Part shown: one piece after another, positions 15,074 to 64,000 of the stretch
Layout of the letters: each line of letters begins with the position of its first letter
Position numbering within the stretch: position 1 is the first letter of the stretch
Translations under genes and position numbers: made by a program
Notes under the pieces: model-generated
What the model was told of the DNA's origin: nothing
The model's input: the letters and a program-made list of their open reading frames with translations, nothing else
The model's database searches: none
NCBI GenBank assembly: GCA_027484125.1
Contig: JAIXUI010000074.1
Span: 63,791-127,790 of the forward strand
DNA from: Bacteroidota bacterium
GTDB taxonomy: Bacteria; Bacteroidota; Bacteroidia; UBA7662; JAIXUI01
Length of the DNA: 64,000 nt
Reading direction: 5' to 3'

Positions 15074-16117
15074 TTAATCGACATTGACTGACGAGTCGTT
15101 TTCGTTCATCACCTTTGAAGCGCTAATCAAGTCGAGTTTACATTGATTGAATAACTCAACCCATGTTTCAGAATTTTCCAAGCCAGAAATGGCTGGAATA
15201 AAATCATTGATATCGTTAAGCAGTTGTTCCAATTGCTTATGGATGGTTCTACTTTCCTCTGAATTAATTTCTTGTAGCAATTTGCGAGTTAAAAGTAGCT
15301 CTTGTTCCACTTTCTTTCTATCGGTAATATCAAACAACATGCAATGGGTTTGCAGTTGATTTGTTTCTATATTTTGAACTGCACGACCAGCAAGTACCAC
15401 CTGCTTCACAAGGCCATCGGCGCGTTTTAATGGCACCTCGCAAACGATAGAACCATTAGACAGTAAAACTTCAAATTTAGAGGTGAACTGAGCAATTTCT
15501 TCTTCAAGCCAAACCATAGTAAATGGTTCACCTATCAATTGTTTATAAGAATATCCCAACAACTCCGAGAGCGCTTCATTCACGAACAGAAAGCTACCTT
15601 TTTCATTAAGAGACTGATAAGGAATAGGTGCTTTTAGCAACAAATCTCGAAACTTAAATTCGCTATCATAGAGGTTAAGAAATAAGGTGTGTTTATCGGT
15701 TATATCTTGAGTTATTCCTACGGTAAAAAGCGGTTTCCCATTATCATCATACTCCGTTTCACAAATCTGCTCCATGTATTTGATTTCACCATCAGGCAAT
15801 ACAGCTCGATGAGTTAGGCGATAGGGCTTTTTTTCCCTTATCGCGTCGAGGTAGCGATGACGAACCATTTCTCTATCATCAGGGTGTATAAAAGGTAAAA
15901 CACCTTGGTCTTTAATCAAATCATTGGATTCCTCTATTTTGTACAATCGATAGAGTTCCGCAGACATCCATACCTTATTTGCTACCCAGTCATGTTCCCA
16001 TAATCCAGAATAAGTAAACCGTTGAAGCTCTTGCAGTTTTCGCTCAGCATCGAACCAAGCCTCCTCGAGTCGCTTCAATTTTTCTCCTAACACTTCCGAT
16101 GTATTATCTTGATTCAT
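15074..16117 (-). CDS. PAS domain protein (N-terminal coiled coil plus two PAS-like domains, no recognisable output domain)
   Basis: 347-aa ORF. The PAS pattern (...WEHDWVANKVWMSAELYRLYKIE...) is repeated twice. Confidence 0.65.
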   Translation of the reverse strand: MNQDNTSEVLGEKLKRLEEAWFDAERKLQELQRFTYSGLWEHDWVANKVWMSAELYRLYKIEESNDLIKDQGVLPFIHPDDREMVRHRYLDAIREKKPYRLTHRAVLPDGEIKYMEQICETEYDDNGKPLFTVGITQDITDKHTLFLNLYDSEFKFRDLLLKAPIPYQSLNEKGSFLFVNEALSELLGYSYKQLIGEPFTMVWLEEEIAQFTSKFEVLLSNGSIVCEVPLKRADGLVKQVVLAGRAVQNIETNQLQTHCMLFDITDRKKVEQELLLTRKLLQEINSEESRTIHKQLEQLLNDINDFIPAISGLENSETWVELFNQCKLDLISASKVMNENDSSVNVD

Positions 16118-16130
16118 GGCGATACTTTAA

Positions 16131-17162
16131 TCAAACCTTAGTTTTTACTGAACTGCATTTATTAACAATGCGATGAATTGAAGTATCGAGATTCAGTAGG
16201 TCAACTTGAATCTTGTCTGCCAGTGAAATTTGAGCTTTATTTAAACTCAATTCTTCTTTTACAAGGGGTAAAATTCCCAACAAATTAGTTACCGGGTGAC
16301 GAAGAATATGCGACTGGCTCCAAGCTATATCTAAAAGTCGCTGATTTTGTTCCTTAATTTTCTCCTGATGGGTATTGATGTAAGTGATATCTAGCAAAAT
16401 TCCATGAAATTCATCAATCTGATGAAGACTTGAAGTGTAACGTTTCACAGTCATTGCCACGATAATCGGCCCCAACTTTGGCCTAACCAAAGTAAAATCG
16501 GCAGTTAGCTCTTCCGCATTTTTCGAATTAGCAATGCTCTTTTTGAAAGCTTCAACTTGATCTTTATTGAGAAATTGATGAAAATGCTTGCCTACAAGTG
16601 ATTCTGACGACTCCCCAATCAACTCGCAAAATCTTTCATTAACCATCGTTATCCTGCATTCTTGGTCAAAACTTACATAAGCTAATGGAGCTTTCGCTAC
16701 CATATCTTGAAACCGATTCGCACTTTCCTCGATTAGTTGAATGGCATTTTGCTTTTCAGTAATATCCTGGCAAGTTCCTATCGAGTACATAGGCTTACCA
16801 TCTGCATTAAAACGTGTTTCACAATGCTCTTCTACAAAACGAATTGAACCGTCATTAAGTACAATGCGATGAACGATGTTGTAGGTGGCTCTACTGTCTA
16901 AAGAATAAAGATAAGCCTTCTTTACTCGCTCCACTTCGTCTTCCGGAATACATGCAAGAAAGGAGGCAAAGCTAGGCTGAAACTCGAGCGGATCTTTCCC
17001 AAAGATTTTGTATATCTCTGAAGACCACCAAAGCTTGTTCTTGACCAAATCAAACTCCCATATTCCGGCTTTGGCAAACTGCTGCAAAACCTGCGTCTTT
17101 CGTTCCGTGTCATGCAAGGCCTGCTCTAAACGAGATATTCTTTCTTGCACCAAATGAAGCAT
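16131..17162 (-). CDS. PAS domain protein, tandem paralog; C-terminal HisKA-like H-box-like segment without ATPase domain
   Basis: 343-aa ORF with the same N-terminal coiled coil and PAS organisation as the neighbouring gene (...IWEFDLVKNKLWWSSEIYKIFG...). The C-terminus (...AWSQSHILRHPVTNLLGI...) resembles a histidine-kinase dimerisation box. Confidence 0.65.
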   Translation of the reverse strand: MLHLVQERISRLEQALHDTERKTQVLQQFAKAGIWEFDLVKNKLWWSSEIYKIFGKDPLEFQPSFASFLACIPEDEVERVKKAYLYSLDSRATYNIVHRIVLNDGSIRFVEEHCETRFNADGKPMYSIGTCQDITEKQNAIQLIEESANRFQDMVAKAPLAYVSFDQECRITMVNERFCELIGESSESLVGKHFHQFLNKDQVEAFKKSIANSKNAEELTADFTLVRPKLGPIIVAMTVKRYTSSLHQIDEFHGILLDITYINTHQEKIKEQNQRLLDIAWSQSHILRHPVTNLLGILPLVKEELSLNKAQISLADKIQVDLLNLDTSIHRIVNKCSSVKTKV

Positions 17163-23819: not shown

Positions 23820-24061
23820 ACCTCGTTTCAAACTACATTTCAGAATTTCCGGCAACTTCTTTCCAACAAAACGACCTTGCTTAAGGTGGAGCATGCAATA
23901 CTGCATGGATATAATTTTTTGGCTATCCCTCATTAAAGGTTAACGATAGCATTCTTAATCGTCTTAATTGCTTCGAAATAAGTTGAAATGGATTTCAACT
24001 TATGCCCCAATGGGTGGTGGTTCAGTACGGCTTTCGTGTAACTTTGGGTCAATTTCAATTC

Positions 24062-25138
24062 ATGCCGATGAAAGTGCACAACTTTAGCGCAGGCCCGGGC
24101 ATTTTACCCGCCGAGGTGCTGCAACAGGCTGCGGAAGCCGCGATTAATTTCAAGGGGATGGGGCTCTCCCTCCTCGAAATCTCTCACCGAAGCAAAGAGT
24201 ATGTCGCTGCCATCGACGAGGCTATGGATGTGGTTCGCCGCCTCCTCCACCTCTCTGACGACTACGCCGTGGTGTACCTTCAAGGAGGTGCAAGCCTGCA
24301 ATTCAGCATGGTACCTTTCAACCTATTACGTCCTGAGGGTTATGCTGCTTACGTAAATTCCGGCGTTTGGGCTACTAAAGCGACTCAGGAAGCCGAAAAA
24401 CTGGGTAAAACTAAAGTTATCGCTTCTTCAAAAGACGCCAACTTCAGTTATGTGCCGAAGGGATATGACATTCCGTCGGATGCAGACTACCTCCACATTA
24501 CTTCAAACAATACCATTTACGGTACCCAGATGAAGGATTTTCCTCAATCTCCGGTGCCTTTGGTTTGCGACATGTCTTCTGACATCTTCTCCCGCGTTTT
24601 CGACCCGAACCAATTCGGTCTGATTTACGCAGGAGCACAGAAAAACATGGGGCCTGCCGGTGCCACACTCGCCATCATCCGCAAGGATTTGCTCGGCAAG
24701 AGCGGTCGCAACATGCCTACCATGCTCAATTATGCTCCGCATATCGAGAATGGCTCGATGTACAACACCCCTTCAGTATTCTCTGTGTATGTATGTATGC
24801 TCACGCTACAATGGCTGGAACGCAATGGCGGTGTGCCGGCAGCTGAAACGCGCAACCGTGCTAAAGCAGATTTACTTTACAATGAAATCGACAGAAATGG
24901 CTTGTTCAAAGGCACTTGTGCTACCGAAGACCGTTCTGATATGAACGCAACTTTCGTGCTTACGGATGAAAGCCACGCTGCTGATTTCGAAAAGATGCTC
25001 AAAGACGCCAACATCAGCGGACTGAAAGGGCACCGCTCGGTTGGTGGATACCGCGCTTCTATTTACAACGCTATGCCTATTGAAAGCGTACAAGTGCTGG
25101 TCGATGTGATGAAAACCTTTGAAAAACAGCGCGGATGA
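24062..25138 (+). CDS. serC: 3-phosphoserine/phosphohydroxythreonine aminotransferase
   Basis: MPMKVHNFSAGPGILPAEVL... followed by the PLP-binding region. Confidence 0.9.
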   Translation: MPMKVHNFSAGPGILPAEVLQQAAEAAINFKGMGLSLLEISHRSKEYVAAIDEAMDVVRRLLHLSDDYAVVYLQGGASLQFSMVPFNLLRPEGYAAYVNSGVWATKATQEAEKLGKTKVIASSKDANFSYVPKGYDIPSDADYLHITSNNTIYGTQMKDFPQSPVPLVCDMSSDIFSRVFDPNQFGLIYAGAQKNMGPAGATLAIIRKDLLGKSGRNMPTMLNYAPHIENGSMYNTPSVFSVYVCMLTLQWLERNGGVPAAETRNRAKADLLYNEIDRNGLFKGTCATEDRSDMNATFVLTDESHAADFEKMLKDANISGLKGHRSVGGYRASIYNAMPIESVQVLVDVMKTFEKQRG

Positions 25139-26061
25139 GGATTTTAGCCAACGACGGCCTGGAAAAAAGTGCCATTGAGCGCCTTACCGCAGCCGGACAT
25201 GAAGTGGTTACCGATAAAGTAGCCCAAGACCAGCTTTCTGCTACCCTTGCCCAGTTTGATGGCATCATCGTTCGCTCCGCCACAACTGTGCGTAAAGACG
25301 TTATCGCCGCCAACTCTCACCTGAAGTTTATTGCTCGTGCAGGAGTAGGCATCGACAACATCGACCACCAGGACGCTAAAGCTGCCGGAATTCCTGTGAT
25401 AAACACACCCGCAGCAAGCTCTATCTCTGTAGCAGAACTGGTTTTCAGCCATTTGTTCAGCGGTGTTCGCTTCCTTCACCAATCGAATAGGTCCATGCCA
25501 GACCGTGGTATCGAAGCCTTCAATCAGCTTAAAAAAGACTATGCCGGTGGCGTCGAGCTTTTCGGCAAAACCCTCGGAATTGTAGGCCTTGGCCGAATTG
25601 GTAGAGAAGCTGCCCGCATCGCATTGGGTGTTGGAATGAGTGTGCTTGCGTTCGATCCATTTATTGAAGGAGAAGCCCAAAAAGCCATTGAAGCCGATTT
25701 CCCAGGACTTAAGTTCGCTGATTGGGATCAGATTGTTGCGAATTCACACTTCCTGAGTCTTCATGTACCAGGTGGAAAGGAAGCCTTGTTTGGAGCGAAG
25801 GAATTCGCTGCTGCGAAGCATCTGATTGGCATAGTCAACTGTGCCCGTGGTGGCGTTATCGACGAAGCAGCACTTCTCGAAGCGCTCAACAACGGACAGC
25901 TCCTCTTCGCCGGCCTCGATGTTTTTGTTGGCGAGCCTAAACCCAAAGTAGAATTGCTCCAACATCCTCGCATTTCTCTCACTCCTCATATCGGCGCCTC
26001 TACCAATGAAGCCCAGCAACGTATTGGCGCTGAACTGGTTGACAAAATTCTTTCGCTTTAA
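25135..26061 (+). CDS. serA: D-3-phosphoglycerate dehydrogenase (D-isomer-specific 2-hydroxyacid dehydrogenase family, short form)
   Basis: NAD-binding GIVGLGRIG motif and catalytic R/E/H. Its ATG overlaps the serC stop. Confidence 0.8.
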   Translation: MRILANDGLEKSAIERLTAAGHEVVTDKVAQDQLSATLAQFDGIIVRSATTVRKDVIAANSHLKFIARAGVGIDNIDHQDAKAAGIPVINTPAASSISVAELVFSHLFSGVRFLHQSNRSMPDRGIEAFNQLKKDYAGGVELFGKTLGIVGLGRIGREAARIALGVGMSVLAFDPFIEGEAQKAIEADFPGLKFADWDQIVANSHFLSLHVPGGKEALFGAKEFAAAKHLIGIVNCARGGVIDEAALLEALNNGQLLFAGLDVFVGEPKPKVELLQHPRISLTPHIGASTNEAQQRIGAELVDKILSL

Positions 26062-26064
26062 ACT

Positions 26065-27270
26065 ATGCCTGAGATTCGCCCTTTCTGCGGATTACGTCCG
26101 CATCCTTCCTGCATTGTCCAGACTGTTCTCGATAAAAACAGCTTGCCAGATGGTTTTGGTGGGTTGAAGGAAGGGGCGAATCCTATTTCGTTCATGCACA
26201 TTCTTGAGCAGGCCAAACCGGCTGCTGATGTGGAACCGAACTACGACATTGCGCGTCATGAGCTTGAACGCTTTGTGCGTGAAGGCATCCTTATTCAGGA
26301 TAGTTCTCCGTGTTACTACTTGTTTTCCGTCACTTACAGGCAGTTTATTCAGCATGGTTTAGTGGCTAGTGTTGCCATCGCCGACTATGAGGCTGGGCTG
26401 ATAAAAAAGCACGAGAAAACACGTACAGAAAGAGAAATTCACTTGGGAAAGTTCATCGGAACACTTGGTCATGACGCCACTCCAGTTATGTTGGCCTATC
26501 GGGCTCGGCCTGAAATTGACAACCTTTTATTCGAAGTTCGTCATCAGGAGGAGCCTATTTACGATGTACGACTCACTGGCGAAGTATGGTTGAAATGCTG
26601 GAAAATTCAACAGCCTGCCATGATAGAGCGTATAGGCGCTGCTTTCAACCGAGTTGAAAGTTTCTACATCGCCGATGGCCATCACCGTGCTGCAGCTGTG
26701 GCAAGGCTGGCGGCTGAAGGCCATGGCTTGAGTCGGTTTAGTGCGGTTCTTTATCCAGACAATGTGCTCAAGGTGTTTCCCTTTTATCGCCGTATCAAAA
26801 AAGGTAATAGCATTGGATTTCACGATGCTTTTCGAGCGCTAAATGGCAGTTTCCACTTACAGGAAATCAATCTGGATATGATGTTTTACCAGTTTCTTCC
26901 TGAACATCATTTTCTATTGTGTACTGCGGCTCATAGCTTTTTATTGACTCCACGAATTCCTTTTCAACCGGGTGAAGACCCTGTTAAGAAGCTGGATGTC
27001 TCCATTCTTCAAGACGAAATCCTTGCTCCATATTTCGGGGTTCATGATCCAAAAACGCATCCTTTTATTGACTTTGGCTCATTGAATATCAGCCTGGCAC
27101 AACTTAAGTCGCTCCTACTTCAGGACGATACCGAATGTTTATTTATTTCCCGTGCGCCGTTGGTTTCCTCTTTATTCGAGGTGGCGGATGCTGGCGAGGT
27201 GATGCCGCCTAAGAGCACCAGCTTCGAGCCGAAGGTTAAAAGTGGAATAGTGCTTCACCCCCACGAGTAA
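26065..27270 (+). CDS. DUF1015 domain protein
   Basis: 401-aa ORF in a serC-serA-DUF1015 arrangement. That linkage is a conserved gene neighbourhood in Bacteroidota, as I recall. Confidence 0.7.
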   Translation: MPEIRPFCGLRPHPSCIVQTVLDKNSLPDGFGGLKEGANPISFMHILEQAKPAADVEPNYDIARHELERFVREGILIQDSSPCYYLFSVTYRQFIQHGLVASVAIADYEAGLIKKHEKTRTEREIHLGKFIGTLGHDATPVMLAYRARPEIDNLLFEVRHQEEPIYDVRLTGEVWLKCWKIQQPAMIERIGAAFNRVESFYIADGHHRAAAVARLAAEGHGLSRFSAVLYPDNVLKVFPFYRRIKKGNSIGFHDAFRALNGSFHLQEINLDMMFYQFLPEHHFLLCTAAHSFLLTPRIPFQPGEDPVKKLDVSILQDEILAPYFGVHDPKTHPFIDFGSLNISLAQLKSLLLQDDTECLFISRAPLVSSLFEVADAGEVMPPKSTSFEPKVKSGIVLHPHE

Positions 27271-27272
27271 AC

Positions 27273-27423
27273 TTCGCGGTTTTCACGCAAGGGTTTTCAC
27301 GCAGGGGGCGCTAAGTTTACGCAAGGTTCGCGGAGAATATTTTAAAACCAGCCGTGAACTTTGAGTAGTCCTAGGGGATTTTGCGTGAAAAACCCAGCCG
27401 CGAACTTTGCGTGGAAAAACCCT
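27273..27423 (+). promoter_or_regulatory. cluster of TTTCACGCA-like motifs (both orientations) plus CGCGAAC-containing direct repeats upstream of uvrA
   Basis: ttttcacgcaa at 27280-27290, ttttcacgcag at 27294-27304 and tttacgcaa at 27316-27324. The inverse form ttgcgtgaaaaa is at 27381-27392 and ttgcgtggaaaaa at 27407-27419. The direct repeats are agccgtgaactttgagt and agccgcgaactttgcgt. Confidence 0.3.
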
Positions 27424-27488
27424 TTTTTCAAAAATACTTAGACCCTTAGCGGTTTAGTGGCTACCACCCTTCTACCTTTGCGGCGTTC

Positions 27489-30302
27489 ATGAAGCAGGAG
27501 CCCACCCTTGACGTTCTCGGAGCCCGGGAACACAATCTCAAAAACATCGATTTGAGCCTCCCAAGGGAGAAACTCATTGTACTTACAGGCCTTAGTGGCA
27601 GCGGAAAATCATCCCTGGCATTTGACACCATCTATGCCGAAGGCCAACGCCGCTACATGGAGAGTTTTTCGGCTTATGCCCGTCAGTTTATAGGCGGAAT
27701 GGAGCGCCCCGACGTGGATAAAGTTGAAGGACTAAGCCCCGTCATCTCCATAGAACAAAAAACCACCAGCAGAAACCCCCGCTCCACCGTAGGCACCATC
27801 ACCGAGATCTACGACTTCCTTCGCTTACTCTACGCACGCGCCTCGGACGCTTATTCCTACGCCACCGGCAAACCCATGATCCGCCTCAGCGATGACCAGA
27901 TCATGCATCACCTACTTCAGCATTACAACGGCAAAAAAGTCATCATCCTCGCGCCCCTCGTGCGGGCAAGAAAAGGACACTACCGCGAACTCTTTGCCCA
28001 GCTCTTGAAAAACGGCTTCTCCAAAGTTCGTGTGGATGGCGAAATCCGGGAGTTGACCTCTAAAATGCAGGTAGATCGTTATCAAACCCACGATATCGAA
28101 CTCGTCATCGACCGCCTCGAAGTGGATGAAGCCTCAAAAACCCGCATGTCGCAGTCGATACAGGCAGGGATGAAACAAGGCAAAGGCGTCATCCTGATTC
28201 AAGACTACGAAACCGGCGAACTGTCCTTCTTCTCCAAGTTCCTCATGGATGCAGAAAGCGGCATCGCCTACGACGAGCCTCAACCTAACACCTTCTCCTT
28301 CAACTCTCCTTACGGCGCTTGCCCCAACTGCGAAGGCTTAGGCGAAATAGGCGAAGTGGACCCCCAGCTTATCGTTCCGGACCCCACCAAATCGGTGCAT
28401 GGCGGCGCCATTGCGCCCTTGGGAGAATACCGCGACATCTGGTTCTTCCGCATCCTCAAAGCCCTCGCAAAACGACATAAATTCAGTCTATCGGTTCCAT
28501 TTTCTTCCTACAGCGAGGAAGTGCGCAACCTCATTTTCCATGGTCACGACGAGCCCCTACTGATGGAATCGAATACCGGAAGCTCCTATCACCATGTATT
28601 CGAAGGCATCATCAACGTACTCCGTAAAAATCTGCATGAACCCGGTAGCGAAAATCTCCAGGAATGGGCCGAAGAATTCGTTACACGGGTTGAATGTCCG
28701 GAATGCCAGGGCAATCGGCTAAAGAAGGAAGCCCTGCATTTTAAAATCGACGGAAAAAACATCTCCGAGCTTGCTCGCATGGAACTTTCCACCTTGCAAA
28801 CATGGATGCAGGGGCTAGAATCGCGGATGAGCGAGCGGCAGCAGCTTATCGGAGCTGAAATTCTCAAGGAAATCCGTAAGCGACTCGGCTTCCTCCTCGA
28901 CATCGGTCTTGCCTACCTCGATTTGAACCGACCCTCCGGCACCCTGTCGGGAGGCGAAGCCCAGCGAATCCGCTTGGCTACCCAGATAGGCTCACAACTC
29001 GTAGGCGTACTCTACATCCTCGACGAACCCAGCATTGGCTTGCACCAGCGCGACAACAGCCGCTTAATTGGTTCACTTAAGCAGCTCCGCGACCTGGGCA
29101 ACACCGTTTTGGTAGTAGAACACGACAAAGACATGATTCTTGAAAGCGACTACGTGGTGGACATTGGACCAGGCGCTGGCCTTTATGGCGGGCAAGTAGT
29201 GGCCCAAGGCACGCCAGAGCAGTTTATGAAGCAGGATTCCCTCACCGCCCGCTACCTCAGCGGCGCAATGGAAATCCCTATTCCCGCCGAGCGCCGCGCC
29301 GGCAGTGGCCAATTCCTGCATTTACACGGTGCAAGCGGCCATAACCTACGCAACGTTAGCGTGCGCTTTCCGCTCGGCACCCTCATCGCCATAACGGGCG
29401 TTTCCGGTTCTGGGAAGTCAAGCTTAGTAACAGAAACCCTCTATCCCATCCTGCGACAACACTTCTACCACAGCCGCCAGAAACCTTTGCCCTACGAAAA
29501 GCTGGAAGGGATGGCGTGGGTGGATAAAGTCATAGAGATAGATCAGGCTCCGATTGGGCGAACACCCCGTTCCAATGCCGCTACTTACACAGGGGTCTTC
29601 AACGACATTCGCGCCTTATTTGCCGAGCTACCCGAAGCCAAAATCCGCGGTTATAAACCAGGGCGTTTTTCCTTCAATGTAAAAGGCGGAAGGTGTGAAA
29701 CTTGCGGCGGCGCCGGGGTGCGCGTGGTGGAGATGAACTTCTTGCCCGACGTGGAAGTAAACTGCGAAGACTGCCAAGGTAAACGATACAACCGCGAAAC
29801 CCTGGAGTTGCGCTACAAAGGCAAGAGCATCGCTGACGTACTCAACATGCCCATCAGCGAAGCCGTCAGTTTCTTCGCCCATGTGCCTGCTATTGTACGG
29901 AAAATCGACACCCTCAACAGCGTGGGCCTCGGCTACCTCACCCTCGGACAGAGCTCCACCACCCTTTCCGGAGGTGAAGCCCAGCGCGTGAAACTGGCCA
30001 CTGAGCTCAGCAAGCGCGACACCGGCAAAACCTTCTACATCCTCGACGAGCCTACCACCGGATTGCACTTCGAAGACATCCGCATTCTGATGGAAGTACT
30101 GCAACGCTTGGTAGATCGCGGCAATACCGTACTCATCATCGAGCACAACCTCGACGTCATCAAAGTGGCCGATCACGTCATCGACATGGGGCCCGAAGGC
30201 GGGAAAGAAGGCGGAATGGTGGTGTTTGAAGGCACCCCGGAAGGCCTATGTGAGCATCCGGGAAGCTTCACCGGGCATTTTCTCAAGCTGGAAATGCAGT
30301 AG
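27489..30302 (+). CDS. uvrA: excinuclease ABC subunit UvrA
   Basis: 937-aa ORF with two ABC ATPase modules (GLSGSGKSSLAFDT... and GVSGSGKSSLV...) and zinc-finger CxxC pairs. Confidence 0.95.
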   Translation: MKQEPTLDVLGAREHNLKNIDLSLPREKLIVLTGLSGSGKSSLAFDTIYAEGQRRYMESFSAYARQFIGGMERPDVDKVEGLSPVISIEQKTTSRNPRSTVGTITEIYDFLRLLYARASDAYSYATGKPMIRLSDDQIMHHLLQHYNGKKVIILAPLVRARKGHYRELFAQLLKNGFSKVRVDGEIRELTSKMQVDRYQTHDIELVIDRLEVDEASKTRMSQSIQAGMKQGKGVILIQDYETGELSFFSKFLMDAESGIAYDEPQPNTFSFNSPYGACPNCEGLGEIGEVDPQLIVPDPTKSVHGGAIAPLGEYRDIWFFRILKALAKRHKFSLSVPFSSYSEEVRNLIFHGHDEPLLMESNTGSSYHHVFEGIINVLRKNLHEPGSENLQEWAEEFVTRVECPECQGNRLKKEALHFKIDGKNISELARMELSTLQTWMQGLESRMSERQQLIGAEILKEIRKRLGFLLDIGLAYLDLNRPSGTLSGGEAQRIRLATQIGSQLVGVLYILDEPSIGLHQRDNSRLIGSLKQLRDLGNTVLVVEHDKDMILESDYVVDIGPGAGLYGGQVVAQGTPEQFMKQDSLTARYLSGAMEIPIPAERRAGSGQFLHLHGASGHNLRNVSVRFPLGTLIAITGVSGSGKSSLVTETLYPILRQHFYHSRQKPLPYEKLEGMAWVDKVIEIDQAPIGRTPRSNAATYTGVFNDIRALFAELPEAKIRGYKPGRFSFNVKGGRCETCGGAGVRVVEMNFLPDVEVNCEDCQGKRYNRETLELRYKGKSIADVLNMPISEAVSFFAHVPAIVRKIDTLNSVGLGYLTLGQSSTTLSGGEAQRVKLATELSKRDTGKTFYILDEPTTGLHFEDIRILMEVLQRLVDRGNTVLIIEHNLDVIKVADHVIDMGPEGGKEGGMVVFEGTPEGLCEHPGSFTGHFLKLEMQ

Positions 30303-30310
30303 GGGGAGTA

Positions 30311-30660
30311 TCACCAAGTGCACTACGGTGTCACCAAGCACACGAGGTAGAATTGAATAGCTTTTATAAAAACCTAGTGCTCCTTGTGAAACCCTAGAGA
30401 ACCTTGTGATAACCCCGCGCGCCGTGTTTCACCAAGGACACAGGGAACGTCACAAAATACACGAGATAGAATTAATTAGCTTTTATAAAAACTTAGTGCT
30501 CCTTGTGAAACCCTTAGAGAACCTTGTGATAACCCCGCGCGCCGTGTATCACCAAGCACACGAGGTAGAATTGAATAGCTTTTATAAAAACCTAGTGCTC
30601 CTTGTGAAAACCTAGAGAGCTTTGTGATAACCCCGCGCTACGTGTATCTTGGGAATAGAT
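30311..30660. repeat. tandem direct repeat, about 3.3 copies of a 98-119-nt unit, between uvrA and the exonuclease gene
   Basis: The unit is tcaccaagcacacgaggtagaattgaatagcttttataaaaacctagtgctccttgtgaaaccctagagaaccttgtgataaccccgcgcgccgtgt. Copies lie at about 30331-30428, 30429-30547 (with a 20-nt insertion) and 30548-30647, with a partial copy at 30311-30330. Copies 1 and 3 are near-identical. Confidence 0.85.
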
Positions 30661-30682: not shown

Positions 30683-31159
30683 ATGGAGGTAAACAGGTTT
30701 ACAGCCTTTGATGTAGAGACTGCGACAAATGAGTCGAGCAGTATCTGCCAGATTGGAATCGTAGTTTACGAAGACGGCGAGGAGTTTTACCATTTCCAAT
30801 CGAAGGTGCAGCCACCCGGCAATCGCTACCATTGGAACAACATCCGTGTTCACGGCATAGAACCACGCCAAACCCTCCACAGTCCAACCTTTGGCGAAAT
30901 ATATCCCAACATCCGGCAATTCTTCGAAGGACAAAACGTAGTAGCCCATAATATCCCCTTCGATAAGCGCTGCCTCGCTAAAACCCTTCAATACTACGGC
31001 CTTGAAACACCGAGTTTCACCTCATACTGCACCTACAAACTCTACCGAAAGAAACTCTCCGAACTCGCCACCGACTACGGAATCTCCCTCCAGCACCATG
31101 ACGCCCTCAGCGACGCCAGAGCCTGCGCCGAACTATTTACTCGGTGGTTAAAGCGGTAA
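30683..31159 (+). CDS. DEDDh-family 3'-5' exonuclease (DnaQ/epsilon-like domain, stand-alone)
   Basis: Exo I motif FDVETA, Exo II VAHNIPFDKRCL and Exo III HHDALSDARACAELF. Confidence 0.8.
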   Translation: MEVNRFTAFDVETATNESSSICQIGIVVYEDGEEFYHFQSKVQPPGNRYHWNNIRVHGIEPRQTLHSPTFGEIYPNIRQFFEGQNVVAHNIPFDKRCLAKTLQYYGLETPSFTSYCTYKLYRKKLSELATDYGISLQHHDALSDARACAELFTRWLKR

Positions 31160-31231
31160 GGGTGGGGATAACTTTAGCAAGACCATTTAGCAAGAAATCG
31201 ATCTTCCATAAACATTCGAATATAAGAAACT

Positions 31232-34200
31232 ATGAATCAAGGCATTTACGAAGAGCTAGTGACAAAATTGGTAGCTCAAAAAATAAATGAATTAGATAAA
31301 AACGCATATCATATCAATAAAACAAAGATTGATAAGGCAGAAGCCTCTATTATTCTAGCCAAGCATTTATCAAGCACCATAAAACGAGCTTTAGAACTAG
31401 TTAGTGGCGAAAATCAATTAGAGCTACAAATAGCCATTGCGAATAAAATTATTCAGTTCTTAAAAGAGGAACTACACAAAGAAGATTTCACAAACGATTT
31501 AATTGAGGTAGAAGGCGAACTATTAAAAGCTGTTTTCACCAAAGTAGACGCCTTTTTTTCTGATTTTGAATTGCATCTTAAAGAAATTACTCCCTATACA
31601 AGACTCACGCACAGTGAACTATTTACGGGAGGAAACGTGGGATTATCACTAGAAAGTGAGTTAAAAAAAGAAATTCTATCTGCAAATAGAATAGACTTTC
31701 TTGTATCATTTATCAAATTTAAAGGAATTATTATTCTCGAAAAGGAACTACAAGAGTTTACTAAACGAGGCGGAAAACTTCGTGTAATTACGACAACCTA
31801 CATGGGTGCTTCTGATTACAAAGCAATTCAATTGCTTTCAAAAATGGAAAACACCGAAGTGAAAATTTCTTATAACACAGGAAACGAACGACTTCATGCA
31901 AAAGCTTATTTGTTTTACCGAGAAACAGGATTTCATACTGGATATATTGGTTCATCGAACTTTTCCAGGTCTGCACTTACGGATGGTTTAGAATGGAATA
32001 TAAAAATTACCACCAAGGAAGTCAGCCATATTATTGACAAATTCCAGAAAACGTTTGACTCCTATTGGCAGAGTGATGACTTTGAAATTTTTGACGATTC
32101 TCTTCACAAAGAGAAATTAGTTGCTTCTTTAAATCAAGGTAAAATTTCGAAAACTACGGAAATCAATCACTCCTTTTTTGAAGTAAAACCCTATCCCTTT
32201 CAACTCGAAATTTTAGAGCAACTAGAAGTAGAACGTTCAGTTCATGAAAGAAATAGAAATTTAGTTGTTGCTGCAACAGGTACAGGAAAAACAGTAATTT
32301 CTGCATTTGACTACAAACGTTTTAAGCAAAAAAATAAATCTTCCAAACTTTTATTTTTAGCTCATAGGAAAGAAATCTTAACGCAAGCAATAGCCACATT
32401 TCGAGGTGTATTACGAGACAATAATTTTGGTGAGCTTTGGGTGGATAGAATGGAACCTTCTAATTATGAGTATGTATTTGCCTCTGTTCAAACATTGAAC
32501 AACAGAATTGATAACTTGACTTTAACTCCGGAATATTTCGATTTTATTATAATTGATGAATGTCATCACTTAACCGCAGATACCTATAGGGCTACAATCC
32601 ATTACTTTAAGCCAAAAATTCTTTTAGGATTAACAGCTACTCCAGAAAGAATGGATGGCGGAGATATTCAGGAAGATTTTCATAACAAAATTGCAGCAGA
32701 AATACGTTTGCCAGAAGCTTTAAACAGAAAACTTCTTTGTCCTTTTCAATATTTTGGCATATCAGATAGCATTGATTTATCCAATGTTGATTGGGAAAGA
32801 GGAAGATATGTAGCTAGTCAGTTAACCAATATTTATACGGCAAATGACAGAAGAGTAAGTGAAATCATTCAAGCGCTTGAAAAGTACACCAAAGACTCCA
32901 CAGATGTTCGGGCGCTAGGTTTTTGTGTTTCAATAGAACATGCCAAATTTATGGCAGAAAAATTTTCACTTGCAGGTTTTAAAACAGACTATTTAACCAG
33001 TGCCAATAATGAAAATAGAGAATCAATAAGAAGTAAATTGCTGAACAAGGAAATTAACTACTTATTTGTTGTGGATATTTTTAATGAAGGGGTAGATATT
33101 CCGGAAATTGATACTGTATTGTTCTTAAGACCCACAGAAAGTTTAACCATTTTCTTACAACAGCTCGGAAGAGGACTTAGGTTGGCAGAAAACAAAGACT
33201 GTCTTACAGTATTAGATTTTGTAGGTAATGCAAGACCTGAATATAACTTTGAAAATAAATTTAGGGCTTTAATTGGCAAAACCACAACGACCGTACATAA
33301 AGAAGTTGAGGATAATTTTCCTCACTTGCCACTAGGATGTTCTATTGTATTAGAAAAAAAGGCAAAAGAAATTATTTTAGAAAATATTAAATCTGCCACA
33401 ACGCTGAATCGAAATCAGATTATCAGTAAAATCAAGAATTTCAAGCACCAAACCACATTACCACTTACCTTAAAAAACTTTATAGAGTTCAATAACCTTA
33501 CAATTCAAGCCCTATACAAAAGAGGCTCTTGGAAAAGATTGTGTCAAGAGGCGGGAGTTATTGACAATTTTGAGTCAGTCAACGAAAAAGAAATTTATTC
33601 TGCTATTTCCAATAAATGGCTATCTACGAGTTCAACCAGTTATTTCAAATTCATTCTAAAGCTAGCAACGTATAATTTTCAAGTCAGTGTTTCTGACTTA
33701 AATTCCAAAGAAAGAACGATGCTATTGATGCTTCATTACGATGTTTGGCAAAAAGCAGGAGGTTTTGATTCGATTGAAGAAAGTATTAGAGCCATTGGTA
33801 AAAACAAGGTTTTTGTGGAGGAAATGATTGAAGTTCTTGAAATATTAGAAGACAAAATCGATTTCAAAGAAATTGACATTCAACTCCCTTACCATCAGCC
33901 CTTAAAAGTTCATGCTCGATACACAAGAGATCAAATTTTGTCGGCGTTTGGATTTAGTACCTTCGATAGAAAATCCTCAAGCCGAGAAGGCGTTGCAGAA
34001 AATACTGATTTAAACACTGAATTATTATTCATCAACTTGATAAAATCAGAGGAAAACTTTTCTCCTACCACCATGTATGACGATTACGCCATCAACGAAT
34101 ACTTGTTTCATTGGCAAAGTCAAAATACGGCTGGACCTGAAACTCCAAAAGGGTTATCATACATCAAACATCAGGAAAACAAAAAGAAAATACTGTTATT

Positions 34201-34372
34201 CATAAGAGAAAAAACTAAGGACGAGCACGGAAATACAATGGGATATGTGTTCGTTGGAGAAGGTAATCTCCAAGAATACTATGGAGCAAAACCGATGAAT
34301 ATTAAATGGAAGCTTAGCGTACCTTTACCACATTATTTGTGGAATGATGCTGCCAAATTGAGGGTTGGTTGA
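31232..34372 (+). CDS. PLD-family nuclease – SF2 (ResIII-type) helicase – DUF3427 fusion protein; SauUSI-like putative modification-dependent (type IV) restriction endonuclease
   Basis: 1046-aa ORF. Single HKD motif HAKAYLFYRETGFHTGYIGSSNFS. Helicase motif I AATGTGKT, motif II IIIDECHH, motif III LTATP and motif VI QQLGRGLR. The C-terminal 350 aa are DUF3427-like. GC is about 33-35% against about 48% in the flanks. Confidence 0.75.
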   Translation: MNQGIYEELVTKLVAQKINELDKNAYHINKTKIDKAEASIILAKHLSSTIKRALELVSGENQLELQIAIANKIIQFLKEELHKEDFTNDLIEVEGELLKAVFTKVDAFFSDFELHLKEITPYTRLTHSELFTGGNVGLSLESELKKEILSANRIDFLVSFIKFKGIIILEKELQEFTKRGGKLRVITTTYMGASDYKAIQLLSKMENTEVKISYNTGNERLHAKAYLFYRETGFHTGYIGSSNFSRSALTDGLEWNIKITTKEVSHIIDKFQKTFDSYWQSDDFEIFDDSLHKEKLVASLNQGKISKTTEINHSFFEVKPYPFQLEILEQLEVERSVHERNRNLVVAATGTGKTVISAFDYKRFKQKNKSSKLLFLAHRKEILTQAIATFRGVLRDNNFGELWVDRMEPSNYEYVFASVQTLNNRIDNLTLTPEYFDFIIIDECHHLTADTYRATIHYFKPKILLGLTATPERMDGGDIQEDFHNKIAAEIRLPEALNRKLLCPFQYFGISDSIDLSNVDWERGRYVASQLTNIYTANDRRVSEIIQALEKYTKDSTDVRALGFCVSIEHAKFMAEKFSLAGFKTDYLTSANNENRESIRSKLLNKEINYLFVVDIFNEGVDIPEIDTVLFLRPTESLTIFLQQLGRGLRLAENKDCLTVLDFVGNARPEYNFENKFRALIGKTTTTVHKEVEDNFPHLPLGCSIVLEKKAKEIILENIKSATTLNRNQIISKIKNFKHQTTLPLTLKNFIEFNNLTIQALYKRGSWKRLCQEAGVIDNFESVNEKEIYSAISNKWLSTSSTSYFKFILKLATYNFQVSVSDLNSKERTMLLMLHYDVWQKAGGFDSIEESIRAIGKNKVFVEEMIEVLEILEDKIDFKEIDIQLPYHQPLKVHARYTRDQILSAFGFSTFDRKSSSREGVAENTDLNTELLFINLIKSEENFSPTTMYDDYAINEYLFHWQSQNTAGPETPKGLSYIKHQENKKKILLFIREKTKDEHGNTMGYVFVGEGNLQEYYGAKPMNIKWKLSVPLPHYLWNDAAKLRVG

Positions 34373-35247: not shown

Positions 35248-36678
35248 ATGAAAAAACTTTTTACCCTCCTACTTCTTGTAACCGCCGGACTATCGGCTTC
35301 TGCCTCCCACTTGATGGGTGGTCAGATTCATGCTCGTCAAATCCCGGGTACGGCTTTAACTTACGAAGTAACCATCCGCCTGTTTCGTGATGTACTAGGT
35401 ATTAATATGTCGGCCCCACAACTAAGGGTATATAGCGGCAATAGTACCCAATACACCAGCAGCATGACCACACTGGCAGGCTCAGGCATCGTCAATGGCT
35501 TTCAGTATCCTACGGAGTGGTATGTTTACAAAGATACCATCACCTTCGCGGCTCCTGGTCAATACAGACTGGCGTACAACGAGTGCTGCCGAAATGCAGC
35601 CATTGTGAATGCAGGCAATAGCCAAACCATGTTCCTTGAAACCAACTTGACGGTTTTTCCCAATGGAACATTCAATTCCAGCCCTGAATTCCTGTTAGAT
35701 CCAGTAGGCTTTGTGCCTCTCAACCAACAGTGGCTCAGCAATCCATTAGCATTCGACGCAGATGGCGATTCACTCGTTTTTAGAATTGACACACCTTTCG
35801 CAAACTTGAATGCCAATGTGACCAACTATGTATTTCCTGCGTCAGCAGCTGGCGGCTTGCTCAATGTTAATTCCTTCACCGGAGAAATCCGCTGGACACC
35901 TTCTACAGTAGGCAACTACATCTTCTCTTATGTGGTAGATGAATACCGCAATGGACAGTTGATTGGTAGCGTAGTGCGTGATTACCAGTACGTGGTGATG
36001 ATGTCGAGCAATACACCTCCTGTGCCTTTAGCTACTTCTGTCAACGGGCCAGTTATCAGCACAGTAAACGGCGTTACTACCGCAAACTTCCCAGCGGGCC
36101 AAGCAGGTTCTATCACACTTACCTACACCGACAACAACAACGACAGCTTAGTGATGCAGGCATTTGGCCGCCACTTCCTTCCCGGAAGCAGCTTGCCAGC
36201 CAACTTCAACTTTGTCCAACTAGACGCACAACCTGGCGTTAGCACCACACGTTTTGTTCGAGGCACCCTCAACTGGACACCTTCGGCTATCGCCAATGAC
36301 CCAGCAAACGACTGGACCTGTGTGTTCCGTGTGTCAGATGTTACCAATGGCATCCGTTTCTTCCGCGATGAAACCATGCTCATTCGTGCAACTACTACCA
36401 CCAGTGTCAACAACCCAAGCCTCTCTCCTCTAAGTCTTTATCCTAATCCGGCGTCAAGTGGCAACTGGAATATGGGCTTCAGCTTGAATGAGCAAGCGAA
36501 TATTCGGGTTAGAATCGCAGACCTTCAAGGCCGTTTGCTCCACAATGACTATTATGGAAACTACCCTGTAGGCCAACACCTGATTGTTCGTCAGGACGCC
36601 TTGCCACAAGGTTTGTATCTGGTAGAACTAGAAGCTAATGGACAAGTTATTGCCAAAGAGAAACTGCTGATTAAGTAA
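35248..36678 (+). CDS. secreted protein of unknown function with C-terminal T9SS (Por_Secre_tail) sorting domain
   Basis: Signal peptide MKKLFTLLLLVTAGLSASA. The C-terminus (...LSLYPNPASSGNWNMGF...GLYLVELEANGQVIAKEKLLIK) matches the T9SS type A tail. Confidence 0.7.
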   Translation: MKKLFTLLLLVTAGLSASASHLMGGQIHARQIPGTALTYEVTIRLFRDVLGINMSAPQLRVYSGNSTQYTSSMTTLAGSGIVNGFQYPTEWYVYKDTITFAAPGQYRLAYNECCRNAAIVNAGNSQTMFLETNLTVFPNGTFNSSPEFLLDPVGFVPLNQQWLSNPLAFDADGDSLVFRIDTPFANLNANVTNYVFPASAAGGLLNVNSFTGEIRWTPSTVGNYIFSYVVDEYRNGQLIGSVVRDYQYVVMMSSNTPPVPLATSVNGPVISTVNGVTTANFPAGQAGSITLTYTDNNNDSLVMQAFGRHFLPGSSLPANFNFVQLDAQPGVSTTRFVRGTLNWTPSAIANDPANDWTCVFRVSDVTNGIRFFRDETMLIRATTTTSVNNPSLSPLSLYPNPASSGNWNMGFSLNEQANIRVRIADLQGRLLHNDYYGNYPVGQHLIVRQDALPQGLYLVELEANGQVIAKEKLLIK

Positions 36679-36703
36679 GAAGCTTCCCATTGATTTCATT
36701 TCG

Positions 36704-36737
36704 AAAAAGGTCTGATGTTATCCATCAGACCTTTTTT
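36704..36737. terminator. bidirectional intrinsic terminator between convergent genes
   Basis: aaaaa-ggtctgatg-ttatc-catcagacc-tttttt: a 9-bp stem flanked by A5 and T6. Confidence 0.75.
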
Positions 36738-63445: not shown

Positions 63446-64000
63446 GTTTACCGTTCAAGCCTGTTGTAATTGTAGGCGCCGGCCCCGGCGGTGCAACCAC
63501 TTCCTTGTTTCTATCAAAAAAGAAAATCAACCACCTCATTCTCGACAAAGCCACCTTCCCAAGAGATAAAATCTGTGGAGATGCCTTATCCGGAAAAGTG
63601 GTAGAGATTGCCGGATATTACGATACCGACCTCATTCGCGAATTTGCTGAACAACAGGAAACCTTCATCGGCTCTTGGGGTGTGGTCTTTGTTGCGCCTA
63701 ACGGCAAACAACTCCCAGTACCCTTCAGCTTAAATCCTGAAAAGCGCAAGTACGCTCCAGGTTTCATCAGTAAGCGCATTCATTTCGATGATTTTCTGGT
63801 GAAAAAACTCAACCCAGCATTCGCTGAAATCCGCCTGGGAACAAGCCTCGAACGGATTGAAAAATCAGAAAAAGGCTACATCCTTACCCTCAAAGGCCCT
63901 CATGGAGAGGAAAAACTCGAAACTTCCCTGTTAATCGGAGCTGAAGGCGAGCGCTCGATCGTAGCCAAACAGCTAGCTGGTTTCAAAAAGGAGCTTCCTA
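63442..64000 (+). CDS. FAD-dependent oxidoreductase (geranylgeranyl-reductase family), 5' part; continues past window end
   Basis: MSLPFKPVVIVGAGPGGATTSLFL... Rossmann GxGxxG dinucleotide-binding N-terminus, plus ...ICGDAL... Confidence 0.7.
   Translation, partial: MSLPFKPVVIVGAGPGGATTSLFLSKKKINHLILDKATFPRDKICGDALSGKVVEIAGYYDTDLIREFAEQQETFIGSWGVVFVAPNGKQLPVPFSLNPEKRKYAPGFISKRIHFDDFLVKKLNPAFAEIRLGTSLERIEKSEKGYILTLKGPHGEEKLETSLLIGAEGERSIVAKQLAGFKKELP

Follow-up and report, generated by a model that had tools for sequence, protein, structure and literature searches.

Among the closest described systems to the element treated here, a repeat array in the spacer between a DUF1015 gene and uvrA of a Bacteroidota bacterium, are the repetitive extragenic palindromic (REP) sequences, bacterial interspersed mosaic elements (BIMEs) and REPINs of Proteobacteria, together with the REP-associated tyrosine transposases (RAYTs). 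The array lies on contig JAIXUI010000074.1, and "the window" denotes the whole 64,000-nucleotide stretch that was analyzed (contig positions 63,791 to 127,790). A REP unit, as defined in PMC3733652, is an imperfect palindrome of 20-40 bp that carries GTAG or CGTC as its end tag. REP-type systems and the array have in common short intergenic repeats in alternating orientation that form hairpins, often right after stop codons, and a lineage-specific presence in which many copies lack an open reading frame (ORF) and a few flank a small nuclease-type gene. They differ in that the window units are not palindromes and carry no GTAG or CGTC tag, their arms instead being built of 9-10-nt tandem sub-repeats. 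The linked gene, named GxxExxY, encodes a PD-(D/E)XK fold and not an HUH tyrosine transposase, and only one array is present in the ~76 kb of this genome that was read, against the high dispersed copy number of REP and BIME sequences.

Two further systems are comparable. The intervening sequences (IVSs) of 23S rRNA, such as that of Coxiella burnetii with S23p (PMC4990558), also have a small ORF in the loop of a long inverted-repeat stem and are regarded as selfish. GxxExxY cassettes belong to another protein family and lie elsewhere: among 40 GxxExxY loci compared with Rfam, none matched a family and none was in rRNA. The window copy has no ORF, the window contains no rRNA, and the array lies between protein-coding genes, unlike a 23S rRNA IVS. 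The BrickBuilt/PgRS MITEs (miniature inverted-repeat transposable elements) of Porphyromonas gingivalis (PMC4596501) are likewise from Bacteroidota, always intergenic and composed of ~23-nt spacerless tandem repeats in variable unit number, with many ORF-less copies; no sequence similarity to them was seen, and the window array has no IS5 link. From the comparisons described below, we consider that the array is rather probably a 'solo' copy, lacking the ORF, of hairpin arms from a repeat family whose members normally bracket GxxExxY genes.

Anatomy and folding of the array

The DUF1015–uvrA spacer is 218 nt long (27271-27488), between the DUF1015 stop codon at 27268-27270 and the uvrA ATG at 27489. 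The initial annotation of this DNA had reported a five-site cluster in both orientations plus direct repeats before uvrA, and the coordinates of the exact copies, near-copies and repeats bear this out. The 9-mer TTTCACGCA occurs exactly at 27281(+), 27295(+) and 27382(-), with TTCCACGCA, one mismatch away, at 27408(-) and the near-copy TTTACGCA at 27316(+). GCCGYGAACTTTGMGT is repeated at 27351 and 27397, and 27344-27366 and 27390-27412 form 23-nt direct repeats of 87% identity. The three exact 9-mers are the only ones in the window, where ~0.5 would be expected by chance on both strands. Matches with at most one mismatch number 24 across the window against 21 expected and are thus not enriched; the signal is therefore a local cluster, not a dispersed motif, and the clustering in the spacer is far above chance. 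No second copy of the array was found in the window by blastn-short or by a hidden Markov model of the unit, and none lies beside the exonuclease or helicase genes of the window; recA, lexA, uvrB and umuDC are not within the ~76 kb read.

The initial annotation did not include two further points: each site belongs to a longer unit, with forward units followed by inverted ones, and the first unit overlaps the DUF1015 stop codon. The array consists of degenerate units of ~14-26 nt, four forward followed by three inverted, and the fullest form of the unit is GGGTTTTTC(C)ACGCAAAGTTCGCGGCT. The units and the hairpin, with pairing as in the minimum free energy (MFE) structure, are as follows.

27262..27279, + strand: U0, forward unit CACGAGTAAACTTCGCGG, degenerate; paired with R1 and overlapping the DUF1015 stop codon
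27280..27293, + strand: U1, forward unit TTTTCACGCAAGGG; unpaired in the MFE structure
27294..27315, + strand: U2, forward unit TTTTCACGCAGGGGGCGCTAAG; pairs with R2
27316..27335, + strand: U3, forward, full A+B unit TTTACGCAAGGTTCGCGGAG; pairs with R3
27336..27350, no strand: hairpin loop AATATTTTAAAACCA, 15 nt, without an ORF
27351..27368, - strand: R3, inverted unit GCCGTGAACTTTGAGTAG; other strains have C at 27364
27378..27395, - strand: R2, inverted unit ATTTTGCGTGAAAAACCC, from repeat analysis and the MFE structure
27396..27422, - strand: R1, inverted full unit AGCCGCGAACTTTGCGTGGAAAAACCC, reverse complement GGGTTTTTCCACGCAAAGTTCGCGGCT
27261..27414, + strand: long imperfect hairpin of the whole array, 55 pairs (26 G-C, 21 A-U, 8 G-U)

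On the + strand the hairpin has a predicted energy of about -67 kcal/mol (-65/-67; z = -4.7), and none of 200 shuffled sequences folds as well. The - strand reaches -58 kcal/mol (z = -2.35); the + strand folds better because of the eight G-U pairs. The last codons and stop of the DUF1015 gene form the outer 5' part of the hairpin, the MFE stem beginning at 27261. Repeat analysis gives inverted repeats of 91% identity between U0 and R1 (27269-27279 / 27398-27408) and of 93% identity between 27319-27333 and 27398-27412. The TTTTCACGCAAAGTTCGCGG units are not self-complementary, and pairing occurs solely between a forward and an inverted unit. Three further contigs of the species, with identical UvrA, carry the same array (four contigs in all) and differ by two single-nucleotide polymorphisms (SNPs) and one indel. 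The A>C change at 27364 creates a sixth TTTGCGT site and restores a G-C pair, and C27331>T lies opposite a G in the stem, so that both SNPs maintain or better the pairing.

GxxExxY genes and their bracketing repeats

Similar arrays were collected from one genome per species as two TTTTCACGCA sites within 30 nt, which gave at least 120 loci; the window's own genome was not among the matches listed, to which the statements in this paragraph refer. They follow an extended grammar, TTTTCA-CGCA(A/G)AG-nn-CGCA(A/G)AG, in 24-26-nt units both forward and inverted, and their hosts are Saprospiraceae, Flavobacteriales, Chitinophagaceae, Pedobacter, unclassified Bacteroidota, Ignavibacteria, Chlorobiota and Gemmatimonadales. 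The grammar extends beyond the searched 10-mer in 13 of 30 loci from the Fibrobacteres-Chlorobi-Bacteroidetes (FCB) group versus 9 of 90 others, and most of these nine show it at just one of the two sites. Two metagenome-assembled genomes have two separate loci each. The arrays are intergenic, often abutting start or stop codons, and unit number and orientation vary freely among related arrays. Their neighbors include genes for aldo-keto reductase, glucokinase, YidC, cytochrome b/Rieske and DnaK, among others, in every orientation; these are unrelated housekeeping genes, and the arrays behave like a dispersed repeat and not like a regulon. In the Saprospiraceae locus L240, TTTCACGCAAAGTTCGCGGAG is near-identical to R1 and U3 of the window (one match in 0.85 Mb versus 0.006 expected), and the units that R1 resembles in its reverse complement follow a GxxExxY gene.

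GxxExxY genes encode ~126-aa PD-(D/E)XK-fold proteins (Pfam PDDEXK_3, PF13366; TIGR04256). At L141, forward and inverted arrays have a 126-aa ORF of this family between them. A GxxExxY gene lies between arrays or at most 100 nt from them in four loci (L141, L176, L240 and L151), and tblastn found none in the remaining ~240 loci compared. The L240 gene (1429-1806) contains an in-frame stop, from decay of the cassette or else from a mistake in the assembly. The three proteins that are intact all keep the D...ExK nuclease residues, D67/E77/K79. A GxxExxY profile had no match among PDB sequences. The family is large and named by its motif, with no function given in the searchable literature, and PDDEXK_3 is listed as 'unknown' (PMC3424549).

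The link also holds in the reverse direction, from gene to repeat. In 80 metagenome loci chosen by GxxExxY protein patterns alone, the 200-nt flanks were mutually inverted in 52 of 71 loci versus 7 of 71 mismatched controls (Mann-Whitney p = 1e-14), with inverted arms of median length 34 nt located ~38 nt from the ORF on each side. At least three tandem sub-repeats with a period of 8-12 nt were present in 67 of 79 upstream and 60 of 75 downstream flanks, compared to 14 of 114 distant controls. The arm sequence varies by lineage (CACAGAGnn, CACGAAGnn, CGCAGATnn or CGCAAAGnn) and usually starts with (A/T)TTCAC. Exact TTCACGCA was found ten times in the expected orientation, forward upstream and inverted downstream, versus twice in the opposite one (chance ~0.7, a ~14-fold excess), and a generalized boundary motif was properly oriented in 27 cases and improperly in 4 (p = 3e-5). 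Cassettes that are 74-80% identical in unrelated contexts (L310/L324, L302/L334 and L293/L328) lose their similarity 30-110 nt outside the ORF; arms and ORF therefore behave as one discrete unit. Mismatches compatible with wobble pairing showed a strand bias in the arms of 59 versus 40, a trend only (p = 0.07), which therefore does not decide between selection at the RNA and at the DNA level. When these protein-selected arms were compared with the window by blastn-short, the matches were A/T-rich noise and uninformative.

On this pattern a full cassette reads 5'-(T)TTTCAC, two to four tandem CGCA(A/G)AG-nn, the ORF, the same sub-repeats inverted, and GTGAAA(A)-3'; its inverted arms can form a long stem carrying the ORF in its loop. 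The window array shares the outer boundary of this family, (T)TTTCAC(G/A)CA forward at the 5' side and inverted at the 3' side, with TTTTCACGCA at 27280 and 27294 (+) and TGCGTGAAAA / TGCGTGGAAAA at 27382 and 27408 (-), as well as the inverted arms, here in a 55-bp stem. Its arm cores are CGCAAG, CGCAGG, CGCTAA, CGCAAG and CGCGGA with successive distances of 14, 9, 12 and 9 nt; the arm resembles the 25-nt 'TTTTCA + 2 cores' unit of L132 and L240. The loop occupies the place that the GxxExxY gene has in full cassettes elsewhere. There is no GxxExxY ORF between the window arms, nor a tblastn match in the window, and we therefore do not count the locus among full cassettes but class it as a derivative that lacks the ORF. 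Since its forward (27262-27335) and inverted (27351-27422) units are only 15 nt apart, it would be a non-autonomous derivative or a remnant of ORF loss.

Insertion or gene conversion might have brought the array to this site, perhaps with the help in trans of a GxxExxY nuclease that acts on the hairpin or cruciform; spread of the arms in this manner would parallel that of REP/RAYT systems and ORF-bearing rRNA intervening sequences. A local effect, if there is one, would fall on the 3' end of the DUF1015 transcript, where the 55-bp stem could serve in processing or stability or as a barrier to read-through.

Several points weigh against a solo copy of this family. The mechanism of mobility is wholly inferred. 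The window's own 10-mer served to select the loci of the genome scan, so that the family picture drawn from these at least 120 loci is a sample. The window arm is more degenerate than typical arms and falls short of a strict count of at least three sub-repeats at 8-12-nt spacing, and the CACGCA arm variant is found in just ~10-15% of GxxExxY loci. Neither a target-site duplication nor a sharp insertion boundary can be defined, because the whole spacer differs from that of relatives; of the features of a MITE, the array has inverted arms, the best duplication is 6 nt, TTTTCA, which itself lies within the unit, and the linked gene is GxxExxY, with no linked transposase. Finally, neither a GxxExxY gene nor a second CACGCA-type array was found in the ~76 kb of this genome that was read, so that for this organism multiple copies and a cognate nuclease are no more than putative.

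A BLAST search of PLSDB plasmids with the array gave no match, and a consensus query returned look-alike elements in Thiodictyon and Nostoc plasmids. Plasmids pTs417 (L260 2495-2640) and pTs485 (L262 2001-2177) of Thiodictyon syntrophicum each carry a ~135-nt ORF-less hairpin with arms TTTTTCACGCAAAGACGCAAAGACGCAAAG / CTTTGCGTTCTTGGCGTCTTTGCGTGA. Identity between the copies is 71%, and G>A and C>T changes match each other across the two arms. By their sequence, these plasmids show that this type of arm is also found outside the FCB group. Two viral contigs carry TTTTCACGCAAAG-N-CGCAAAG-N-CGCAAAG directly upstream of terminase large-subunit genes (L256 1817-1850 and L259 1639-1670); the L256 terminase is of the gpA type, and in L259 a ParB-HTH protein is encoded on the opposite side. 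The same motif is present in six further viral contigs in other contexts.

More broadly, and as a tentative proposal by analogy with RAYT/REPIN pairs, GxxExxY proteins and their sub-repeat arms may form an undescribed nuclease-plus-repeat system of the FCB group and beyond (Gammaproteobacteria plasmids, cyanobacteria and phage contigs). The nuclease would recognize the arms as a DNA cruciform or RNA stem and would make or maintain ORF-less arrays such as the two that flank uvrA, the second of which is described below. The searchable literature, which is incomplete, holds no description of the arrays or of the GxxExxY–repeat link, and curated family notes may mention them; we regard the family-level link as a modestly novel lead. 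It places GxxExxY genes within a stereotyped hairpin of short tandem sub-repeats, with gene-less arms scattered in intergenic DNA, and offers a testable hypothesis for the family, that of a nuclease specific for a structure or a repeat and coupled to the repeats on its own flanks. The link further accounts for a class of intergenic 'motif arrays' that could pass for operators in motif-finding pipelines.

Competing explanations and the uvrA promoter

An alternative that we hold unlikely is that the array is a binding site for a host protein (nucleoid-associated, centromere-like or of the ribbon-helix-helix type) that reads the 9-10-nt sub-repeats, and that GxxExxY genes insert preferentially into such arrays, which would then be target sites and no part of a cassette. 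The sub-repeats, direct and inverted, recur roughly once per helical turn, as is typical where small repressors or partition proteins bind an array cooperatively. Consistent with this idea, L151 and L176 have arrays on both sides of the gene in a non-hairpin arrangement, and TTTTCACGCAAAG-N-CGCAAAG is conserved in contigs ranging from 35% to 64% G+C, viral contigs and plasmids included. However, cassette homology covers arms and ORF as a single block that ends just beyond the arms, and the arms vary by cassette lineage (CACAGAG, CACGAAG, CGCAGAT and others), a variation that agrees better with arms inherited together with the ORF than with a single conserved host factor. The analysis yielded no candidate for the binding protein.

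The array could also have arisen locally, if CACGAGTAA at the end of the DUF1015 gene seeded tandem and inverted duplication there, to give a 3' stem-loop (terminator, RNase III site or mRNA stabilizer) with a chance likeness to GxxExxY arms. The first unit is indeed the gene's own conserved end, CACGAGTAA; the + strand, which is the gene strand, folds better through its eight G-U pairs, both stem SNPs preserve or improve pairing, and the array is present in a single copy in 76 kb. A chance likeness is nevertheless difficult to reconcile with a 21-nt unit near-identical to that of the Saprospiraceae array beside a GxxExxY gene (the 1 in 0.85 Mb versus 0.006 noted above), or with a boundary motif and orientation bias at GxxExxY loci that were found independently of the window. 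The terminator variant in particular lacks a signature. A promoter/terminator consensus scan of 27100-27600 gave no intrinsic terminator, and its sole sigma-70-like match falls inside uvrA. U-runs lie 5' and A-runs 3' of the stem, opposite to the order in a terminator, and the T-run at 27423-27428 comes after an A-run and CCC, not directly after the stem. Taken together, we assign a local origin a low probability.

The initial annotation had favored another interpretation, a multi-site SOS or stress operator for uvrA, with a small repetitive element as the fallback. The hairpin units, the dispersed similar arrays and the GxxExxY link support the fallback; the operator did not withstand comparison with orthologous loci, lack of conservation there being part of what the initial annotation itself had named as refuting it. 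The lineage is sparsely sampled: DUF1015 homologues beyond the species itself are 94%, 86% and 86% identical, then 52% and ~40%, and UvrA is 96% and 90% identical to its nearest relatives, then 68%. In L008 (UvrA 96%) the DUF1015–uvrA synteny is kept, and the 400-nt spacer is unrelated, lacks the array and shares only ...CTGCTACCTTTGCGGCGTTCATG with the window. L347 (UvrA 90%) has another gene upstream of uvrA; the array is again absent, and the proximal segment alone is conserved. The array is also missing 3' of the DUF1015 gene in L001-L004 and, as judged from these sequences, is species-specific. In both L008 and L347, conservation is limited to the proximal ...CTACCTTTGCGGCGTTCATG segment with the promoter, the ~25 nt that directly precede the ATG.

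Promoters of Bacteroides and Flavobacterium have the consensus -33 TTTG / -7 TAnnTTTG. One such box is found upstream of uvrA:

27473..27480, + strand: -7 box TACCTTTG, the single TAnnTTTG of the spacer and not part of the repeat

The TACCTTTG segment is likely the uvrA core promoter. It belongs to a CT(N)CTACCTTTGCGGCGTTC stretch right before the uvrA ATG that is common to three species-level lineages (window 27464-27488, L008 9975-10000 and L347 1475-1500), a position that implies a very short or absent uvrA 5' leader. The array ends at 27422, ~50 nt from the -7 box, and spans 50-210 nt upstream of it, overlapping the stop of the preceding gene. It thus neither adjoins nor overlaps the predicted promoter, as an operator would. 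If the array is a solo copy of GxxExxY arms, uvrA would be unaffected, with its own conserved promoter 50 nt downstream of the array.

Operators for the Bacteroidetes LexA regulator resemble the array in being short repeated or palindromic sites before DNA-repair genes, sometimes in several copies, and differ from it in sequence, in their relation to the core promoter and in conservation among orthologues (PMC8565304). The LexA boxes described there are GGA-N5-TCC and CTAA-N5-TTAG, and the main text of that paper does not contain the word 'uvrA'. Scanning 27271-27488 for these two boxes and for TTAC-N5-GTAA, GAAC-N4-GTTC, CTGT-N8-ACAG, GTTC-N7-GTTC and TGTTC-N4-GAACA yielded no hits. The last five are established LexA-box motifs. 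The scanned window ORFs gave no S24/LexA-like gene. The repetition of sites in either orientation ahead of a gene that is a classic case of damage induction does have the look of a LexA-like or other stress operator. In addition, two Verrucomicrobiota genomes (L157 4650-4690 and L193 2660-2700) have a conserved TGCGTGAA-N3/4-TTCACGCA palindrome followed by a third TTCACGCA. By sequence this looks like a genuine transcription-factor operator made from the same octamer, which can therefore be a transcription-factor half-site in some lineages. Even so, with the array missing before both orthologous uvrA genes despite their conserved core promoter, and with the same arrays adjoining unrelated housekeeping genes elsewhere, we consider an operator for uvrA very improbable. 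For uvrA the finding is ordinary: no role of the array in its control is shown, and the array is of no help in defining the SOS operator of this lineage, the sole conserved upstream element being an ordinary Bacteroidota-type core promoter.

Two other lines were set aside. A LytTR response regulator encoded upstream in a sister contig was rejected as a binder of the array, as this gene is missing from the corresponding place in the window. Likenesses to DnaA boxes, parS half-sites (TGTTTCAC), P1 box A/B, PurR boxes and MuA/TniA ends extend over 5-7 nt and were post hoc among many candidates; the arrays are multi-locus, and these likenesses were not used.

A reading of the array as a uvrA leader element, either a small RNA or a cis-regulatory RNA with structure, is suggested by the strong + strand fold and is scarcely credible given that the window has no Rfam match at the gathering score and the spacer only noise at E<10, that the conserved promoter box lies downstream of the structure, which is so probably outside the uvrA transcript, and that the structure is not conserved in orthologous loci while unit number and orientation are free in related arrays.

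Neighboring genes and a second repeat array

The DUF1015 gene is the last of a cluster with an aminotransferase and a 2-hydroxyacid dehydrogenase gene, and a second repeat array follows uvrA:

24002-25138, + strand: class-V aminotransferase (ORF/Pfam)
25135-26061, + strand: 2-hydroxyacid dehydrogenase (ORF/Pfam)
26065..27270, + strand: DUF1015 gene (Pfam PF06245, E=5e-52)
27489..30302, + strand: uvrA, 937 aa (Pfam UvrA_inter, UvrA_DNA-bind)
30308..30648, no strand: second repeat array just 3' of uvrA, three tandem ~100-119-nt modules

The modules of the second array contain GT(T/A)TCACCAAG forward and CCTTGTGA(A/T)AAC inverted sub-repeats. Their number varies among strains, L130 having one module in a 162-nt spacer; contig L131 ends inside the array. 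Some GxxExxY cassettes have TTTCACCACAGAGG-type arms that these sub-repeats resemble; uvrA may thus have ORF-less arrays on both sides, and the second array may belong to the same superfamily as that of the DUF1015–uvrA spacer. Such arrays may add to contig breaks in metagenomes; the single break seen is in this separate repeat 3' of uvrA.

Beyond it, 30683-34372 is of low G+C (0.34-0.43); its products are an RNase_T/DnaQ-like exonuclease and a protein of 1046 aa that combines PLD, ResIII helicase and DUF3427 domains and has a defense-like look. The stretch is absent after uvrA in both relatives, where L008 has dnaK and L347 a histidine kinase gene instead, and is probably an inserted island. 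Compared with 36678-36736 of the window, L130 (18969-22701) contains ~3.7 kb extra between the Por_Secre_tail and Exo_endo_phos genes, with genes for HupE/UreJ_2, a DUF3500 protein with a type IX secretion system (T9SS) tail and an AraC-type regulator. At 15074-17162 lie two adjacent paralogues consisting of PAS domains only (347 and 343 aa), also of low G+C (0.37-0.39).

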